Source: Monosiga brevicollis MX1 | Taxonomy: Eukaryota | Direction of reading: 5' to 3' | Assembly: GCF_000002865.3 (NCBI RefSeq) | Contig: NW_001865076.1 | Location: 199,570 to 263,569 of the forward strand | Length of the DNA: 64,000 nt | Shown: positions 27,040 through 36,944 of the stretch, piece after piece | How positions within the stretch are numbered: the first letter of the stretch is position 1 | How the letters are laid out: each line of letters opens with the position of its first letter | Notes under the pieces: model-generated | The model's database searches: none | The model's input: only the letters and a program-made list of their open reading frames with translations | Told to the model about the DNA's origin: nothing | Translations under genes and position numbers: made by a program

Positions 27040-28057
27040 TCAGAGTGTGATAGCAAAGTTGTTGCGGCCGCCGCCCTCGACGAGGACTGCCTTGGTTTGG
27101 AGTTCTCGAGCCACGGGTGTTTGCGGTTCGACGCGCTGGCACCAATAACAGGCCAGGCGTTTGGTATGCTTGCGTTGCCGGACGGCAAACCCGACGGCAC
27201 CCAAGATCTGCAAAAGACGATCTTCGGTGGTGTACCGGCTGTTGTTGACGCAGGCCAGAGGCAGCATGAGGGCTAACCAACCATCGGGATGTAGCAACTC
27301 GTGGCACCGACGCAGCATGGCACCGCGCTGGGCGGGGGAAGGGACAAAGTTGATGACCAGGCACAAGGAAATGACATGGTAGCGCGGCTCATCCGGCACG
27401 GTGAAAAAATCGCACTTTTCCACAAACGGGTGCTGGGAGTTGAGGTCAATGGCTCGGGTGGCGATCCAAGCGCGCTCGCGTCGGTAATTGTCGTCCAGCG
27501 CGCCCACGTCAAGCAGAGCCAGCTGGGGGAGGGGTGCGCCAAATGCCTCTTGTCGGCCTGCTGGAGAATGTAATTGAGCCTCGCGCAGCATGCTGACGAC
27601 CCAGCGCGAGCTATTGGTCACGCCACGCGACTCGCTCTTGAGGGAGAATTGCTGGTAGGCCTCGATCCCTCCCAACTCGGTCAGCTCCTGTTCGATGGCA
27701 GCAGCACGGTGCGTCTCTTGATTGGCCTGCGCGTGCGCCAAATCCTTGTTGAGCTGATGCATATAGGCAATGGCAGCCGCACTATTCACAGCAAAGCAGG
27801 TCAGCACAAGGGTTCAAGCGCAGATTGACCGAACAGCAAGGGCGCAGCCGAGGCCTGGTCATTGGCACCTACTGCTTTCGACCGGATCGCCGCCCAACGA
27901 GGCCCTTTTCAACCACGCGCTTGACCAGCGGAGCCGTTGCCACCTGTGTCACCGGTCGTCCCCCCGTCTTCTTCTTCCCCCTGCCCTTTTGCTGCCCCCG
28001 ACCCCTCTTGGCCTTGTTGCCCATCTTGTCGCCCCCTGCCCCTGCGGCTGCCCCCAT
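27040..28057 (-). CDS. BMT2: 25S rRNA adenine-N1 methyltransferase Bmt2-like, 2 exons
   Basis: Basic N-terminus; LGGIEAYQ..S, SSRWVV, LLDVGAL, AIDLNSQHP, CDFF, ISLCLVINFVP...RGAML, LPLACVNNSRY, RNNFAI. Confidence 0.85.
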
Positions 28058-28239: not shown

Positions 28240-29207
28240 ATGGCTGATGCGGGAGCGAGGACGGCGGGCAGCGCGGGGATGCGGTTGCCGGATCGGTTTG
28301 CGAGTTTGCCGGCGGCGCTGTCTGTGGTGGATCCGACTTGGGAGGTGGGTGGATGCATATCATTGAAGATGGTGTTTTATCGTGTGCCAAGGATTGTGCT
28401 GCTGCTTCAGTTGTGTTCTTCATTGAGCTTCGGTCTTGAACCCATGTCGCTGACGCTTCCATGCCCCTCGCTCTCTCTCTCTCTCTCTCCCTCTCTCACT
28501 CACCCTCTGTGCAGACGCTTGACCCAAACCCAGACATTTTCGAGCTGTTTCAGATCTTTAATCGACTCTTCTTCAATTCCAAGCTTGATGGCATCGAGGT
28601 GGGTCGAGGTCCAAGGCTGGACCCTCGTATGCTCTGCTCACGCACCTTGATTCACCTGGACTTGACAGGTCAAGTGGTCAGCGCGCATGACGTTGTGCGC
28701 TGGTGTCTGCAGCTTCGATGGCCAATTGTGCAGCGTGCGACTCTCTCAGGTCAGCTTGATGCCGGATGCTCCAACGCCTCGACCATTGGCCCCACATTGG
28801 TCCTGCTCGCGTGCAGACTTGCTCTGGTCCTCCCCAGTTCACTCTCTTTTATTTATTTAGCCTCTACTGCGGTATCGTCCGCGCGCCGACCTGGTCAACA
28901 CCCTTTTGCATGAAATGATTCACGGTACGCTGCCAACCAGCTCAGCAACGTCCTGCACTCGGCCATGACACCTGCATTGCCCCAGCTACGAGCCTCTCTG
29001 CTCATACCACTGCAATTCGAGTCACATGCAGCCTACCTATTTCTCTCCAAGGGCGAGCGGGATCGAGATGCCCACGGCCCCAACTTTCACTACCACATGC
29101 AGGTATTTACCCGCTCTGCCCCACCTGGCACCCATTGCCCCCGCATGCTGGCACCGAGCCTGTGTTACTGGAAGGGGGCAAAAAGAGTAGCGTGCACCCT
29201 CCTCACC

Positions 29208-29277
<70 letters not shown>

Positions 29278-30288
29278 GTTGTTGTTGTTGTGTGTTTAGC
29301 GGATCAACGTGCTTTCCGGAAGCCAGGTCACGGTCTTTCACACCTTTCATGACGAAGTCGATTTGCATCGGGTTCACTGGTGGCAGTGCCAGTAAGACTT
29401 ATACCACCTTCTTGCCACCTCTTCCTTGCAAGCATATTGTACTATGCCGCTCCGTGACACTTGAGGTGACCCTCACTTTGTTGTGTTGGACCAACTCGCC
29501 CATCAGGGGTCCTTGTCAGAAACGATCGCCTTACTTTGGGCTCGTCAAACGTGCCATGAACCGTGCGCCCTCGCCGCGAGACCCTTGGTGGGCTGATCAT
29601 CAGCGTAATTGTGGAGGCAACTACGTCAAGGTCGGTGGGCCACAGCCCGGCACTTCTGCCGCTGTCGCTTATCCACTTTTGTACGAGCGTTGGCCGCTTG
29701 AACTCTTTTATTCAGCCATCCTGCCGTCTAGATTCGCGAGCCGGAGGACTATGGAAAGAAGAAAAAGAAGAAGAAATCTGGCAAGCAGCACGACGAAACA
29801 TGCCCACCCGAGCAGACGGATGAACCCACGGCCAAGCGTTCTGCAGGCGCTAGTACGTCTGGCTGGTGACCCGACCTTCACCGAATATATGTTTGAAGGT
29901 GTTTGTCAAGCCCATGCGCCTCATTCCTTGTTTTTTTATAGGTGTGCCCCCGCGCCGTGCCAGCACCTCTGTGCTTGACCTGTTGCAACGAACTCCAGCC
30001 CAGCGAGCGCGCCGGGCAACCGCACCGGACAAGCTCAAAGAGGCAAGCCCCCTGCCAAAAACGATGGAGGATGATTATGACGCCCAGGCCGTTGCCAGCG
30101 AGGATGAGGTTGTGTGCATTGCCGAAGACACGATGGCGAAAGCGTTGCCTCAACAAGGATCGGCGGCCTCTGAACCCGAGGCTGACCTCGTGTGCCTCGG
30201 AGAAAGCTTTGCCTGCCCAATCTGCAGCGTGGCCGTCGCTACCCAGCTCGACATGAACCGCCACCTAGACACTGACCATGCCCTTTAG
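28240..30288 (+). CDS. SPRTN: SprT-like DNA-protein crosslink protease Spartan
   Basis: SVVDPTWE|TLDPNPD, VKWSARMTLCAGVC, LVNTLLHEMIH (HExxH), HGPNF, HTFHDEVD, VKRAMNRAPS.RDPWW..H...CGG, C-terminal UBZ CPIC..MNRHLD. Confidence 0.92.
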
Positions 30289-31095: not shown

Positions 31096-32381
31096 ATGAT
31101 GGCACCGGACGAGGGAGAGGGGAGTGCGAGCAGCTCGATGGCGTCGGGGGATATTGGGTTTGCGTCGGTGGAGCATGATGTCAACTTTGATGATTTGGCT
31201 GGATCCATCGACCAGGTAGGTCTGCATTTGTCGTCGTGGACCGTGTGGACATGTCGCACGCAGCAAGGGGTGATTGCTGGCTGAGGCTGACAGGCTTTGG
31301 CTGCGCCTTTTTCGTCGGCGCGTCGTTGGGGACGGCGGCATATGCAGGAGGCGGTGGCTGATCAGCAGCTGGTTCAAATGACGCTCGATGAGCCCGTGTG
31401 GGATACGCTCAAACGCGACCTGGTCGCTATCGGTCGCAAGTTTTACTACGTCTTTGTCCCGCATCGCAGCAAAGCCCTTTTACACGTACGTTCCCCCCCT
31501 GCACCGCTGCACCGCTGCTCCGCACCGCAGCCGGTGCTATTCTCCTCGAGATATGTATGAGTCAGCGCCATTGAGCAACTTGATCGTGCATCTTGCCCGC
31601 CCCAGGCAGCCGTGTACCTCCTCATCTCCTCATGCTGGCCCCACGCTTGTAGGACTGGGACTTGTGGGGTCCCATGATCCTGACCATGACGCTGGCTTTG
31701 ATGCTGCGGTCGTCGGCCGGTCCCGACTTCCAGTCTGAAGTCTTTGCCGGCGTTTTCTTCATCATTTGCGTTGGAGCTACCGTAATCACGGTCAACAATC
31801 AGCTTCTCGGCGGTACCCTGTACGCACCAAACATGCTGGCGCAAGCTCTTCCCCGTTATCCGAACACTTGCACCTCTCCTCTCATTCCTCTTGCTTCGTT
31901 GGGCTGGCCACATCTTCAGAACCTTTTTTCAAGGTCTCTGCGTTTTAGGATATTGCATCTTACCCCTGGTCACGGCATGCTTGCTCCTCAAGCTCATCTC
32001 CGCCATCAGCACCCATCTCGCCTTGCGCACGCTGGTCGTGGCCGTGGCCCTCGCGTGGTCCATCTACGGTACGCATCTTCTCGTCACCAATCGCGCCTGC
32101 CGCGCCCTCTTCTTGCCGCACCCTCTTCTTCCTACTATCACTTTCTGTCAGCTCACGGGGCATCCAAACTTGCTCCTCCGCTCTGTCACGTAGCTTCTTT
32201 TGGATTTGTGTCTGGGCAAAGCCCCGTCAAGCGCCGCGCGCTCGTGCTTTACCCCATTGTGCTTTACTACATTGTCATTGCATGGCTCGTGCTCAACGAT
32301 GCCCCCGTCGCCTCTCACGCCGCTGGCTCTGCCGCAAAAACCACGCCCGCACCAACGACAGTCCCTACCCAAGGCTCATAA
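31096..32381 (+). CDS. YIPF6: Yip1 domain family member 6, multi-exon
   Basis: TLDEPVWDTLKRDL, DWDLWGP, VITVN.QLLGG, FFQGLCVLGYCILPL, RRALVLYPI.L.Y. Confidence 0.9.
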
Positions 32382-32629
32382 CGCCACCGCCGAGAACATA
32401 CGACCGTTGTTCGCTACAACAAATCTAACAGTGCTCACATTCTCCCGTCAGCTCACAACCTGGCCCAGTGGATTATCATGTCGATTATTAAGAAAGAAGG
32501 ACGATGAGGGGCAAGGGAGACACAATGATCTTGCGTGTAACGACTCTCAAAAGAAGGGGCTAAGATGATGACCACAACGATCAGCAAACAATAATGACAT
32601 CCAGACTGACTCGGCCGGCTCCTCGGATT

Positions 32630-35600
32630 CTAATCCTCCCAGTCAGAGTCCGATTGTTCATCTACGAGGCAAGGAAGAAAAAAAAGAGAAAGAAAGAAAA
32701 AAAAAAAGATGAGGTAACGTCTCATAGCAAAGGGTCAACGGATAGGCTCCTCAAGAGGGGGTTGAAACTTCGGTCACCTCACAAGCGCGCAAAGTACCTA
32801 CCATCTTCACTATCCGACATGGCCCCTCGCCGTGCATCCATGGCATTGACCAGGGCAGTCGTGAGGGAGTTGCGTTGGCCTGGCGAACGTGCCGAGGTGG
32901 GTGTCGCCCGCACCCGGCGGAGCGACTTCTGGCCTTGGCCCGAACCAATAGAAGCCATCAACACTGCGTGTGGAGTGGCGGCTGCCGGTGAAGAAGGCTC
33001 GCTGCTGTCGTGCACACTGCGCAACCTGGATTTGTTACCGGGATCACGTAATGAAGCCAACAGCGATCCTCGTTCAGCCGATGGGGGTACACTCATCGGC
33101 CCAGTACCGGAGCGTGGCGGTGGTGTCGCAAAGGAAGACGGCGCTGAACTTGAGGTGGGTGACGCCAATAAAGTGGCACCAGACGGCGGTGGAGGGGGCG
33201 GAGGCGGTGGTGCTGGTGCACCATTGTTTGGTTTGGGCGTACTTGCCTCAGACGCCTGGGCCACCGAGGTTTCCGCCACCATGGAAAGATTCTCATCCAG
33301 CGGCGGGGGCGGCGGTACATCGAGCAGCTCACACGACGCTTGGCGGGATCCAAACAAGCGCGGGCGTAGCTCACGTGCATCAAGAGGTGGGGGTGGTGGC
33401 GGCACAAAGTCGAGATCATCGTCCGAATCGCTGTGGCTGTCGCGGGTTGCCTGGGTCATCAGGACAGGCGCAGGTGGCGGAGGCGGAGGAGGTGGCGCGA
33501 GCGCCAAATCACCACTGGAAGGTGGGGGCGGCGGTGGTGGCATGGGGGCTGCTGGCGCATTGACCGAAGCCACAATCTCGGGCGAGGCATCCATTACCAG
33601 GCTGGGCGGTGGTGGAGGCAGCGCACAGTCGGACTGCAGAGATGGCGGGCTGGGCACGCGATCGAGGAGAGAAGCTGCGCTGTTGGCCGTGGACAGTGTG
33701 ACGGGTGGCTGCATGGCCAGCACGTCGGCGTCTGTGATGTCCCCCAAGCCAAGGTCCATTTCCAAGTCCAAAACAGCATCCATAGTGGAAGCAAACACAC
33801 AAGGGTCCAGGACTTCCATCTCCATTGTGAAGGGGTCACTTGGTCCTGTGGTGCCACCTGCGGAGACGGGTGAAGGAACAGATGTGACACTCACGGCCGG
33901 CGGTGCTGCTGTTACGGCCACCACGCTGCCAGCGCGACTGGCCGGCTTTGGCGCCGGCGGCGGGGGCAATCGCTTAGCAGACGCATCTTCAGACATGGCA
34001 GTGGGCAAGGGGGCGGAATGCAGACTCGGCACCATCGCCACTGGACCCTCGGGCGTGTCCGCAGGTTGGACACTAGAGCTGGGCCGCGAGGTCATGGCTG
34101 ATGGAGGCAGGGGCAGTGCCTCGATTTCCAGCGCATCCACATCCGTGTCCATGGGACCATCGCCGAGTTCGCGAAACACAAGCACACGAGGTGGCGGGGG
34201 CTTGGGGGCTGGCGGTGGAGGTGGAGTTCGGGCGCGGGTTTTCAGCGCCGATCGAGCAGCAGCAATACCTTCAAGCGAGGGCATGGGTAGGGGGGCACTG
34301 GGTGTCGGCGCCGGGGTTGCAGTAGCGGGCGCGTGGCTGCTAGGTCCAGGCTGTGGTGGTGCGAGGCTTGACACAGGGGACGCTGAAGAAACCGGGGGCT
34401 GACTGGGCGAGGTCCGTAGCGCTGGCGGTGGAGGCGTCCTGGCGGCCGGGAAAGCCCGGCGCACACCAGAGCCCTCGCTGATGAGGGCGGCGGCACTGGC
34501 TCCACGAATAATTTTGCTGCCATCAGAGTAGTTGAGGGCCGAACGGGACCCCACGGAGCACAAGCTGCTCTGGCGGCTCAGGCTATATTGGGGGGCTGGC
34601 GAATGGGGCGATGACCGCGGACCCGTCTCGTCCCAGATGGTTTCGTTGGAGCGACGAGGTGTCCGCACCGGCAAATCGTCTTCCTCCGAGTCACATTCGG
34701 TCACGGCCGTCAAGTCCGAGTTGTTGGCCAGTAGCGAGTCGCTCGAGCTTTGGCGGCCGGGTGGTCCCGGGGCGCGTCGGCGCGAGGCGTCCCCATGCCG
34801 CGAGGCCGCTGCCCTGGCCACCTCCAAGAGAAGAGGCGGGGCTGGGGCTCGTCCACGCGCCCCACCCAAAGGTGGCTGCGGGGCCGGCGCAGCTGAGCGC
34901 ACGCTTCGCGTCCGCTTAAACTTGTCGGCAGCACCAAACAGGGACCGCAAGTCTGGGTTGCTGCGGCGCAGCAGGGATCGAATCCCGCCGTGCTGATCAA
35001 TCTGATTGAGGACAAAGTTACGTACGCCGACATCGTTCTGCACGGCCTCGGTCAAGTTTGTGCGGAGGCACAAATCGCAAAAGCCGGTGGGCATGCGCGC
35101 ATCACTCAGGGCGACGCCCTCGGCAAGCAGAGATGTGAGGCGCTGCACATCGCGGCGAGTGGCCTCGGGTTCGTCGTTGAGCGACGTTTGGGAGGGAGCG
35201 CGCTGCAGGGTGGGCTCGGAGATTTCCAGCTTGCGCCGCCGGCGCTGCTCCTCTTCCAGGTTTACGGGTGTTCGTCCCACCCCAGTGGAAGGGGTGGCAC
35301 TTGAGTTGCGACGGTTTCCGCGCTTTACGCTGGAGAAGGCCCCAGAAAACATGCTGCCACGGCGAGCGCGGGTGATTTTTCCCTCGACGAGAAAGATTTT
35401 GCGCCGCTTGCAGTCGCGCACAACGCCTTCCACCGGCACTAGCTTGCGGCCGCTGGGATTCTCGGCCATGACCAGGTCGGTTGCACTGAGGGAGCGCTTC
35501 TCAGCAATGTAAAAGAGCAGTTCACCCATCGACATCATCTCTGGGACGGAGACAACCGTTTCGCCGCCATCGGGCAGGTGCACCTGGAAGAATACCATCT

Positions 35601-36944
35601 CTGTGGTACTGCTTCGACGGCGCGGCTTGCCGGCGTTGTTTTGTGTGAGCACGGCCAGGGCCGTGGATTTGTCGCGTTTGGTGTCCACCACGTCCAGGAG
35701 ATGAACCAGATGGAGGGTCTTGTTGGTCACGTCAGCGACGGTCATGGTGGTGAGGTCGGTGGAGCTGAGAATGTTGCCCGCTTCGGTGAGCCGCACGCCA
35801 ATGGTGTGGGCATCGAGCTTGCGCTTTCGCGCAATGTGCTCAATAACATCCGTCAGGCGTTGAGACGGATCGTGCAGAGTCATTGTTGAGCCGGCCTCGG
35901 GAAAGTGAATCTGCACACCACGCACCAAACAGCAACCCCGTTTATGGAGTACAGGCCAAGAGGAGCGAGGATGGGTGCATGGAGGAGCAAAAAAAGGGCG
36001 ACGAAACTGTACCTTGAGCAGGACTTTGTTCTGCTTGTCCTCCTTTTTGGACATGTCAGTCAGAAATTGATAGGCCTCGGTGGTCTGACCGGTCCGGTTC
36101 AGGTGGGAGAGCCGGTGCTGGGCCTCGGCATTTCGTAGCTTGGCTTCGGCGGCCGTTTTGGCCAACTGAACGCCAGCTTGCAAGTGTTGCAGCAGCTACT
36201 CATGGCACGAGGGCTAGCGGTTAGTCAAATGCCTGGGCCAGCAGCACGGTGTTGGGTCCGAGCAGGAGGGCTTATGCTCACCTTGTCTGTGGCGGCACTG
36301 GCCACGAGCTGTACGCCGTAGGATAGGCAAGAGCCTTTGGCATGCCATTGGATAAAGGTATCTTTGGTGCGCTTGAGGCGGGTCTCCGCTGTGATCTTCA
36401 GGTTGAGCTGCACCACAACGTTTGGCCCATGAGTTGATACATCCCCAAGGAAAAGAGATAGCTTTTGGGTCATGGGGGGTCGGTGGTACACAAGAATGCC
36501 GTTCTCGACCGACTGTAATCCCACACCACGCTCGGCTTACCTCGCGTCCTTTGCCCGTGGAGACGATGCGGAAGGGATGCTCAATCGAGGCTCGATCGTG
36601 AACGACGCGCAGACCAATGTACCCATCCGTCAGTGTACGCCAGCCCTCGGGATCCCCTTGCATGCTAAAGGGTTTCAGGTCAGAAGTAAGGGGAGGGTTC
36701 AAAGGACTTTGTGAGCACGCAAGAGTGGGGACGTTCAGCGAGACCTAAACCACTCTTTGGCTTGGCATGCACCAGGGCCCCAGAAATGGCGAGAGGTATC
36801 AACTCATGACACGCACCAGCTGTAGAGAGCGCCATGGTAGGTATCGACGATGCTCTCAGACGTCGACAAATCAGTCTGCGATGAGCCGCGGTTGGCACGC
36901 TCCAGGGTGTGGGAGGTTTGCATGGCGTTGAGCGCCGTCGTCAT
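32630..36944 (-). CDS. WASP-family actin nucleation-promoting factor with WH1, two ubiquitin-like RBD/Cobl-type domains, degenerate CRIB/GBD, Pro-rich region, 2x WH2 and C-A
   Basis: N-terminal EVH1-like exons (ALYS..GWRTLTDGYIGLRVV; TFIQW..SYGVQL); WH2 RGSLLASLRDPGNKSRLRSV and HAVLMASIGSGQGQKSLRRV; C helix SLTTALVNAMDARRGAM; last exon 32661-32630 completes SDSEDDEQSDSDWED*. Confidence 0.85.

Follow-up and report, generated by a model that had tools for sequence, protein, structure and literature searches.

A WASP-like gene of Monosiga brevicollis with paired RBD/Cordon-bleu-type beta-grasp domains and no recognizable working CRIB, a candidate second nucleation-promoting factor

WASP-family proteins are the main switches through which signals lead to branched actin, and it is by the type of input module (CRIB, WHD, WAHD, or another) that the known subfamilies are defined. 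The gene MONBRDRAFT_12455, which lies on the minus strand of a 64,000-nucleotide stretch of the choanoflagellate Monosiga brevicollis MX1 (contig NW_001865076.1, positions 199,570 to 263,569; referred to as the window here), raises the question of which input such a switch would read when it lacks a working CRIB and carries two beta-grasp, ubiquitin-like domains (UBL1 and UBL2) in its stead. The answer that we favor, with a probability of roughly 60%, is that its product is a second nucleation-promoting factor of the WASP family in M. brevicollis, one from a family found across choanoflagellates, whose Arp2/3-activating end would be autoinhibited and then released through the beta-grasp pair. 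The gene itself is real and conserved, and it is a variant of the WASP family, not a new system; what sets it apart is the unusual input module, together with a possible bridge to Cordon-bleu in the sister group of animals.

The gene comprises six exons between window positions 36944 and 32630, and translation of the spliced exons gives a product of 1233 amino acids (aa) that is identical in every residue to the NCBI record of MONBRDRAFT_12455 (P0002 in our protein set), named “uncharacterized protein” by NCBI and “WH2 domain-containing” by UniRef. All five introns have AG acceptors and GT donors, the fifth donor reading GTAGGT, and every junction is in frame. Exon 5 (3.1 kb) is uninterrupted from UBL1 to the C (connector) helix. 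An earlier reading of this stretch, made from its letters without database searches (the sequence-only reading), had described a WASP-like Arp2/3 activator on the basis of the peptides QIHFPEAGSTMTLHDPSQRLTDVIEHIARKRKL, FQVHLPDGGETVVSVPEMMSMGELLFYIAEKRSL, LEISEPTLQR, and IDQHGG, two WH2-like motifs, a C helix, and a terminal DWED before the stop codon, and we found all of them in the sequence. From the N to the C terminus, the modules follow one another as EVH1/WH1 domain, conserved helix, two beta-grasp domains, disordered basic linker, WASP-type autoinhibitory helices (WAID), KRAP-type motif, proline-rich region, two WH2 motifs, C helix, and acidic tail. Their positions in the window are as follows, where A1 denotes a five-member alignment and profile and A3 the 14-member family profile.

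32630..36944, minus strand: whole coding region from its ATG through the stop codon (MONBRDRAFT_12455; 1233 aa in six exons)
36944-36817, minus strand: exon 1
36664-36541, minus strand: exon 2
36407-36282, minus strand: exon 3
36195-36013, minus strand: exon 4
35910-32802, minus strand: exon 5
32661-32630, minus strand: exon 6
36282..36857, minus strand: EVH1/WH1-fold domain, about aa 30-126 (exons 1-3, two introns within the range; from AlphaFold2, Foldseek, and profile A3)
36013..36195, minus strand: long helix with conserved HRLSHLNRTGQTTEAYQ, aa 127-187 (exon 4; helices 121-160 and 164-178 in the AlphaFold2 model)
35686..35910, minus strand: UBL1, first predicted beta-grasp domain, RBD/Cobl type, aa 188-262 (from AlphaFold2, an RBD stretch, and hhalign)
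35374..35604, minus strand: UBL2, second predicted beta-grasp domain, aa 290-366 (from Pfam RBD, the 2daj profile match, VIA-align, and ESM Atlas)
35200..35247, minus strand: RRRRK followed by LEISEPTLQR, the putative CRIB start, aa 409-424 (disordered in the AlphaFold2 model)
34903..35172, minus strand: helical domain with pre-helix QRLTSLLAEG and WASP-type autoinhibitory helices (WAID, ...NQIDQHGGIRSLL), aa 434-523
34753..34785, minus strand: KRAP-type motif SRRRAPGPPGR, aa 563-573 (conserved at this position in the family)
33082..34902, minus strand: proline-rich, mainly low-complexity region, aa 524-1130 (about 600 aa), in which [FLWV]PPPP occurs four times
33013..33075, minus strand: WH2 motif 1 (ERGSLLASLRDPGNKSRLRSV), aa 1133-1153 (from A1 against a Cobl WH2 chain)
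32911..32970, minus strand: WH2 motif 2 (HAVLMASIGSGQGQKSLRRV), aa 1168-1187 (from the family profile and alignment)
32818..32877, minus strand: C helix ...NSLTTALVNAMDARRGAM, aa 1199-1218 (D1212, R1214, and R1215 invariant in A1)
32630..32817, minus strand: acidic tail SDSEDDEQSDSDWED and stop (last intron, 32801-32662, splits the tail)

What the protein would do is suggested by its C-terminal end. A1 matched the Cobl WH2 chain 4jhd_C with an E value of 1.3e-8 and both WH2 motifs in register, while N-WASP (2vcp) reached only 0.35 with the family profile. The DxRR motif of the C helix is invariant in A1, and the C terminus reads D[DE]W[DE] in 10 of the 14 aligned members of the M. brevicollis protein family, the sample to which all counts out of 14 refer. 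C helices with this motif, together with acidic tails bearing a penultimate tryptophan, are hallmarks of Arp2/3 activators. The poly-proline stretch, the two WH2 motifs, the C helix, and the acidic DWED tail of the sequence-only reading are thus borne out by the sequence, by the match to the Cobl WH2 profile, and by the invariant DxRR. By analogy with N-WASP, the WH2-WH2-C-acidic end would deliver actin monomers and activate Arp2/3, which we consider likely. Among the relatives, only P0015 exceeded the cut-off of the Pfam WH2 model (40.1 bits); this protein has a run of about five extra WH2-like repeats.

The helical domain upstream of the proline-rich region was modeled by AlphaFold2 as seven helices with block-mean predicted local distance difference test (pLDDT) values of 95-98 (model residues 251-320). 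A 26-member profile (A2) matched the GBD structures of WASP and N-WASP (2k42, 1ej5, 8s5t, 9r3y, and 2lnh) with E values of 0.014-0.051, with no other helical family matched there, and the alignment comprises 42 columns without gaps that span the WASP helices up to ...FIEDQGGLEAV. The GBD-like helix region proposed earlier is therefore recovered as a predicted helical bundle with a weak profile match to WASP and N-WASP. As in those proteins, it might keep the C helix autoinhibited, a role to which we give somewhat less than even odds. A complex prediction of WAID (aa 436-522) with the C-acidic end (aa 1190-1233), run without alignments or controls, returned a score of 0.00, which carries no weight for or against this role. 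The pre-WAID helix QRLTSLLAEG (aa 441-452) is highly conserved, with S447-E451 invariant in A1, and may resemble the helices of EspFU and the C region of WASP that occupy the GBD groove; it could act as a competitor within the protein or belong to the domain structurally. An EspFU chain was absent from all the PDB searches made. Kollmar et al. (PMC3298513), who name WAID, treat it as separable from the CRIB and describe WAID-only WASPs in ascomycetes.

The two segments that had been described as ubiquitin-fold-like lie between the N-terminal part and this helical domain. AlphaFold2 and Foldseek agree on a beta-grasp fold for both: block-mean pLDDT values were 88-95 across model residues 1-90 (UBL1) and 95-97 across residues 111-170 (UBL2), and Foldseek aligned the pair with linear di-ubiquitin and ISG15 (E values, 3.6e-7 and weaker). 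The Pfam RBD model (PF02196; cut-off, 25.7 bits) scored 28.4 bits on P0002, where its best stretch covers aa 296-333, and 33.8 bits in two stretches on window positions 35386-35910. It rose to 55.7 bits in relatives; of 25 family proteins scanned, 11 reached or exceeded the cut-off, among them all five members scanned at full length. UBL1 and UBL2 also align with each other (hhalign, 98.9%; E value, 2.6e-17), and their sequences identify them as duplicates of one another. Fold, Pfam match, and internal duplication together confirm this part of the sequence-only reading. UBL2 is the best-conserved module of the whole protein, with a mean pairwise identity of 0.50 and presence in 14 of 14 members.

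As to the subtype of the fold, UBL2 leans to the Cordon-bleu type in three sequence and model comparisons. The family profile matched the ubiquitin-like domain of COBLL1 (2daj) with an E value of 5.1e-4 over 80 of 91 residues; the same structure was the top row in VIA-align (Z score, 10.8; root mean square deviation [rmsd], 4.7; 90 residues aligned), with many ubiquitin-like proteins tied at Z scores of 10.7-9.3; and the top ESM Atlas cluster for UBL2 was Cobl-domain (0.91, with 187 shared features). Raf RBD chains had E values of 0.13-0.66 with the family profiles, the value of 0.13 falling on UBL1 only. The Pfam Cobl model (PF09469; cut-off, 25 bits) gave no match on the M. brevicollis protein, stayed below threshold in eight relatives, and passed in P0017 (25.2 bits), P0023 (34.4 bits), and P0024 (39.8 bits). 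Of the two Pfam families that had been considered for the pair, PF02196 was thus found on the M. brevicollis protein itself and PF09469 only in three relatives. When aa 1-400 were submitted to ESM Atlas, Grb10/RAPH1 clusters of RA-PH type appeared at 0.76-0.78, under the trustworthy level, and a phmmer search of the PDB with the relative P0005 gave a best E value of only about 1 (Epac2 RA domain and EVL EVH1). Tandem Raf-like RBDs of the PF02196 type stand side by side in RGS12 and RGS14 as well, in a context of RGS and GoLoco domains that is unlike that of the WASP-like gene.

The beta-grasp pair is followed by the place that a CRIB would occupy. The sequence-only reading had seen a degenerate CRIB there, and a functional CRIB is indeed absent as judged from the sequence: PF00786 (PBD/CRIB) gave no match on the M. 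brevicollis protein at E values of ≤10 or ≤1, the segment is disordered in the AlphaFold2 model (pLDDT under 50), and downstream of ISEP there is no F, H, or HVG. The claim of degeneracy comes down to these four residues. By chance alone, 0.38 occurrences of an ISxP motif would be expected for a protein of such composition, and the motif stands at the homologous site in just 3 of the 14 members, which disfavors ISEP as a true CRIB remnant; in its favor is the location between a basic stretch and WAID, the place of the CRIB in WASP. We therefore regard a CRIB relic as possible on thin sequence evidence.

At the N terminus, AlphaFold2, run with 11 relatives, modeled aa 1-187 as a seven-stranded sandwich with a long capping helix (block-mean pLDDT, 81-95 for residues 31-170). 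The best Foldseek match of this model was the EVH1 domain of Homer3 (E value, 1.7e-7; template modeling [TM] score, 0.82), the EVH1 domains of Homer3, Homer2, and Homer1 together spanning E values of 1.7e-7 to 1e-6 at target TM scores of about 0.8 and an rmsd of 2.5; Ena/EVL EVH1 domains (about 1e-5 to 2e-5) and Ran-binding domains ranked next. With A3, EVL EVH1 was matched at 1e-4 and Homer at 8.5e-4, and the Pfam WH1 model passed in the relative P0004 (25.9 versus a cut-off of 22.4 bits). No WASP or N-WASP WH1 chain appeared in the Foldseek or A3 profile match lists for this part of the protein. The WH1-like N terminus of the sequence-only reading therefore holds for the fold, and a WASP subtype is no more than a possibility. 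In the exon 4 helix that follows, R154, L155, H157, L158, R160, G162, and Q163 are invariant in A1.

Between WAID and the WH2 motifs, the segment SRRRAPGPPGR fits the syndapin-SH3 consensus of Cobl, KrRAPpPP, and the dynamin motif RRQAPPPP, as both are given in passages of Izadi et al. (PMC8282341). The pattern [KR][KR][KRQ][AG]P is present at this site in 12 of the 14 members, and R565, A567, P568, and P571 are invariant in A1. The proline-rich region contains [FLV]PPPP repeats, found also in P0003, P0006, P0008, P0015, and P0021, some of which are flanked by acidic residues (e.g., LDFVPPPPPPLD and LLDVPPPPPLDE). Because such motifs resemble class I EVH1 ligands, the protein's own EVH1 domain or Ena/VASP might bind them. 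We think that the EVH1 domain and the KRAP-type motif probably serve targeting, via proline-rich ligands and a PACSIN/syndapin-like SH3 protein, respectively.

To what extent is this architecture shared? An exhaustive phmmer search with aa 188-564 against 1.84 billion representatives retrieved 25 proteins at E values of ≤1e-3, 16 of them at ≤1e-10. Ten clusters were looked up, and all seven with a species name belong to choanoflagellates (Salpingoeca kvevrii, Barroeca monosierra, Codosiga hollandica, Bicosta minor, Didymoeca costata, Acanthoeca spectabilis, and Acanthoecidae sp. 10tr); the other three come from JGI or ENA records. Together with M. brevicollis, the named relatives span both orders, Craspedida and Acanthoecida. 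Several are transcriptome open reading frames (ORFs) labeled “type:complete” (P0004, P0010, and P0021) that hold EVH1, UBLs, and the WH2-C-acidic end in one frame, and these ORFs are the sole transcript-level support for the architecture. Homologue searches with A3 and with aa 1-380 of P0017 returned two proteins and one protein, all already known; candidates were picked by words in these searches, so that blanks are uninformative. A zinc ribbon lies between the proline-rich region and the WH2 motifs in P0004 (double and above the Pfam cut-off) and, below threshold, in P0022, and a CxxC...CxxC pattern of this type is visible by eye in P0010 and P0021; the M. brevicollis protein has none.

A separate, canonical WASP does exist in the M. 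brevicollis genome. The relevant excerpt of Additional file 1 of Kollmar 2012 (PMC3298513) describes MbWasp as WH1, a lysine-rich stretch, a full CRIB (MISGPSDFRHVSHIGLD), WAID (FIEDFVNKNGGIES), and poly-proline, with the CRIB also given as MISGPSDFRHVSHIG. The corresponding entry in Table S1 of Sebe-Pedros 2013 is jgi|Monbr1|38251, and the pertinent passage of Fritz-Laylin et al. 2017 counts one MbWASP, taken from Kollmar. Given this CRIB-bearing MbWasp, MONBRDRAFT_12455 is a paralogue and not a replacement, so that the term used in the sequence-only reading is correct. The motifs of MONBRDRAFT_12455 are absent from both of these supplementary files, and it is therefore an additional WASP-like gene that neither catalogue lists. 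Within the literature collection searched, “choanoflagellate” and “cordon-bleu” did not occur together in any paper, and in a search on Cobl, Monosiga, and WH2, “Monosiga” occurred in none of the 15 matches listed of 207.

A comparison with known systems places the protein closest to the order of modules in WASP, N-WASP, and MbWasp: EVH1/WH1, WAID, a proline-rich region, two WH2 motifs (as in N-WASP), a C helix, and an acidic tail with tryptophan follow in the same sequence. Unlike WASP, MONBRDRAFT_12455 has no CRIB and inserts two beta-grasp domains and a conserved helix between EVH1 and WAID, its EVH1 is nearer to Homer and Ena/VASP than to WASP WH1 in the searches made, it is 1233 aa long, about 600 aa of which form the proline-rich region, and in a by-eye reading of the alignments its WH2 motifs have a long spacing from helix to LRKV, like those of Cobl. 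With WAWH and WAML, as described in parts of PMC3298513, it shares a retained WAID-proline-rich-VCA portion behind changed N-terminal input modules; WAWH has no WH1, WAML has an IMD, and neither is described there with beta-grasp domains. RBD, Ras-binding, Raf, and ubiquitin are likewise not mentioned in the main text of that paper.

These comparisons suggest a mechanism in which the WAID-held C helix would be released by ligands of the beta-grasp pair, which stands in the place of the CRIB, and not by Cdc42 on a CRIB. The likeliest ligand of the pair may be a membrane-anchored GTPase of the Ras superfamily, a tentative choice that we consider doubtful; otherwise, another partner of Cobl-type domains would take this part. 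Several observations weigh against the reading of MONBRDRAFT_12455 as a second WASP-family factor that works in this way. Neither Pfam WH2 (including a scan of the C-terminal 110 aa) nor Pfam PBD was detected on the M. brevicollis sequence, the 100-aa WAID piece had no Pfam PBD match, and phmmer with the WAID piece against the PDB gave 0 matches at E values of ≤10; the E values for WAID are marginal, and the homology of both WAID and the WH2 motifs is carried by family profiles. WAID is present in 10 of the 14 members and missing from P0017, P0021 (Acanthoeca spectabilis), P0022, and P0034, the latter two (Acanthoecidae sp. 10tr type) being also the 2 of 14 without UBL1. Autoinhibition is consequently not universal in the family: either the presumed autoinhibitory part was lost more than once, or gene models are incomplete. 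In both Foldseek and the A3 profile, Homer and Ena/VASP outrank every WASP WH1 chain as matches of the EVH1 domain, which leaves descent from WASP unproven, since domain shuffling could yield the identical order. UBL2 lies closer to the Cobl domain than to Raf RBDs, and the available literature passages give no GTPase partner for the former. Contigs from M. brevicollis sequencing runs over the locus were colinear with the genome, contained no joints, and are silent on expression and splicing. Arp2/3 activation, autoinhibition, and Ras/Rap binding are all functions that we infer from sequence.

The first alternative, the specific version put forward in the sequence-only reading, takes the name of the Pfam RBD family literally. 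If both UBLs are true Ras/Rap-binding domains, GTP-bound Ras or Rap would directly open the autoinhibited protein, creating a shortcut from Ras to Arp2/3. We consider this rather unlikely. In its favor, the RBD model is at or above the cut-off in 11 of 25 proteins, the module, between EVH1 and WAID, takes up precisely the place of the basic region and CRIB of WASP, and a K-R pair in helix 1 is invariant in both UBLs in A1 (K216 R217 and K325 R326). In the wider alignment, K325 R326 is invariant in 14 of 14 rows, and the UBL1 pair varies in P0021. The suggestion of Ras or Rap itself derives from the Pfam family name, however, and is tempered by the kinship of UBL2 with the Cobl domain, which points to a different ligand. 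A by-eye alignment keeps only some of the Ras-contacting residues of Raf, the M. brevicollis UBL2 has a glutamate where most relatives have a lysine, and the beta-grasp fold is common to many domains that bind no GTPase.

The Cobl-type features raise a second question, that of descent. The proposal of the sequence-only reading that the protein is a link between WASP and Cobl has gained support, with UBL2 nearest to COBLL1 in three tests, the WH2 motifs matched at 1.3e-8, and the KRAP-type motif conserved. The occurrence of Cobl-like traits (UBL subtype, KRAP-type motif, and WH2 motifs) and WASP traits (EVH1, WAID, and the C-acidic end) in one protein gives concrete form to the hypothesis that Cobl originated from a WASP-like ancestor. 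In the choanoflagellate family, the ancestor of animal Cobl would then survive at full length, and Cobl and Cobl-like would have arisen by loss of EVH1, WAID, and the C-acidic end, with a WH1-cobl protein of Nematostella as an intermediate. We judge this descent rather improbable. Schultz and Terhoeven 2013 (PMC3849942) traced Cobl to Bilateria and inferred a single WH2 motif in the ancestral protein, so that the likeness of the tandem WH2 motifs may be convergent, and the structural match of UBL2 was tied with generic ubiquitin-like proteins. No animal or filasterean relatives were recovered by the phmmer search with aa 188-564 or by the A3 and P0017 searches, the latter two being uninformative when blank. 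The same authors report a cobl domain beside WH1 in Nematostella and beside WW, PTB, and CRIB in Capsaspora, the latter called enigmatic. Compared by description, these proteins resemble the choanoflagellate family in combining a cobl-type UBL with a WASP-type module (WH1 or CRIB) outside Bilateria, but PMC3849942 reports no WH2 motif in either of them, whereas the choanoflagellate family has WH2 motifs.

A further possibility is that the protein is a Cobl-like protein and not a WASP, in which UBL, KRAP-type motif, and tandem WH2 motifs work as in Cobl and the beta-grasp domains bind no GTPase. It would then act by Arp2/3-independent nucleation or filament-length control, e.g., at the base of the collar microvilli, with recruitment by F-BAR/SH3 proteins. 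The features that appear to be shared with Cobl and Cobl-like 1 are the UBL subtype (2daj), a KRAP-type SH3 motif, an extended disordered middle rich in proline, and WH2 motifs at the C terminus; the choanoflagellate family differs in having two tandem UBLs. The nearest match of UBL2 to the COBLL1 domain and its ESM Atlas Cobl cluster, the Pfam Cobl matches above cut-off in P0017, P0023, and P0024, and the proximity of the WH2 pair to Cobl WH2 motifs are all in line with such a protein. To our knowledge, Cobl proteins have no EVH1, WAID, C helix, or acidic tryptophan tail and act without Arp2/3. The invariant DxRR of the C helix and the tryptophan-containing acidic tail are conserved here, WAID matches WASP and N-WASP only, and Pfam Cobl is sub-threshold on the M. 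brevicollis protein. From the literature, the KRAP-type motif of 12 of 14 members fits the consensus in the cited passages of PMC8282341 and Cobl is located at the microvillus base according to parts of PMC4161516, while the single WH2 motif of ancestral Cobl (PMC3849942) speaks against the equation with Cobl. On balance, a purely Cobl-like protein seems improbable to us. Finally, it is very improbable that the annotation fused an EVH1 gene with an adjacent UBL-to-VCA gene into an artefactual architecture, for, although EVH1 sits on four small exons upstream of the single 3.1-kb exon and the M. brevicollis sequencing contigs gave no RNA support for joined exons, all junctions are GT-AG and in frame, and EVH1, UBL(s), and the WH2/C-acidic end occur in one protein in S. 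kvevrii, D. costata, and A. spectabilis (complete transcriptome ORFs) and in Acanthoecidae sp. 10tr (protein).

The surroundings of the gene contain further open frames. A 612-aa frame at 32564-34402 (plus strand), rich in glycine runs, mirrors the region coding for poly-proline on the opposite strand and in all likelihood does not represent a gene. The next gene downstream, at 31653-32381 (plus strand, opposite to the WASP-like gene), has a hydrophobic first exon like that of a membrane protein (DWDLWGPMILTMTLALML...), with no Pfam match in its first 46 aa. A 765-aa open frame at 17999-20296 (minus strand) contains a protein kinase domain (Pfam Pkinase, 3.8e-35). The frames at 27040-27813 (minus strand), 28914-29978 (plus strand), and 5878-6891 (plus strand) match the rRNA methyltransferase Bmt2 (3.7e-55), a Spartan-like zinc-binding domain (7.1e-22), and JmjC/cupin (2e-5), respectively; these three are ordinary housekeeping genes without evident connection to the WASP-like gene.

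If MONBRDRAFT_12455 and its relatives are WASP-family factors as proposed, the sister group of animals has a conserved subfamily that would combine the output and autoinhibitory parts of WASP with a pair of RBD/Cobl-type UBLs replacing the Cdc42 input. A candidate route to Arp2/3 would then start from some ligand, which may be a Ras-family GTPase, in cells that form both a microvillar collar and phagocytic cups. Cordon-bleu was long called vertebrate-specific, and the family offers a concrete candidate for the origin of its odd mixture of a ubiquitin-like domain and WH2 motifs, as well as a possible explanation for the WH1 and CRIB neighbors of cobl domains in Nematostella and Capsaspora. Should the descent of Cobl from such a protein be true, the cobl-type UBL would have begun as a signal-input module replacing the CRIB in a WASP paralogue, and the Cobl of microvilli and the collar microvilli of choanoflagellates would share a regulator by descent.

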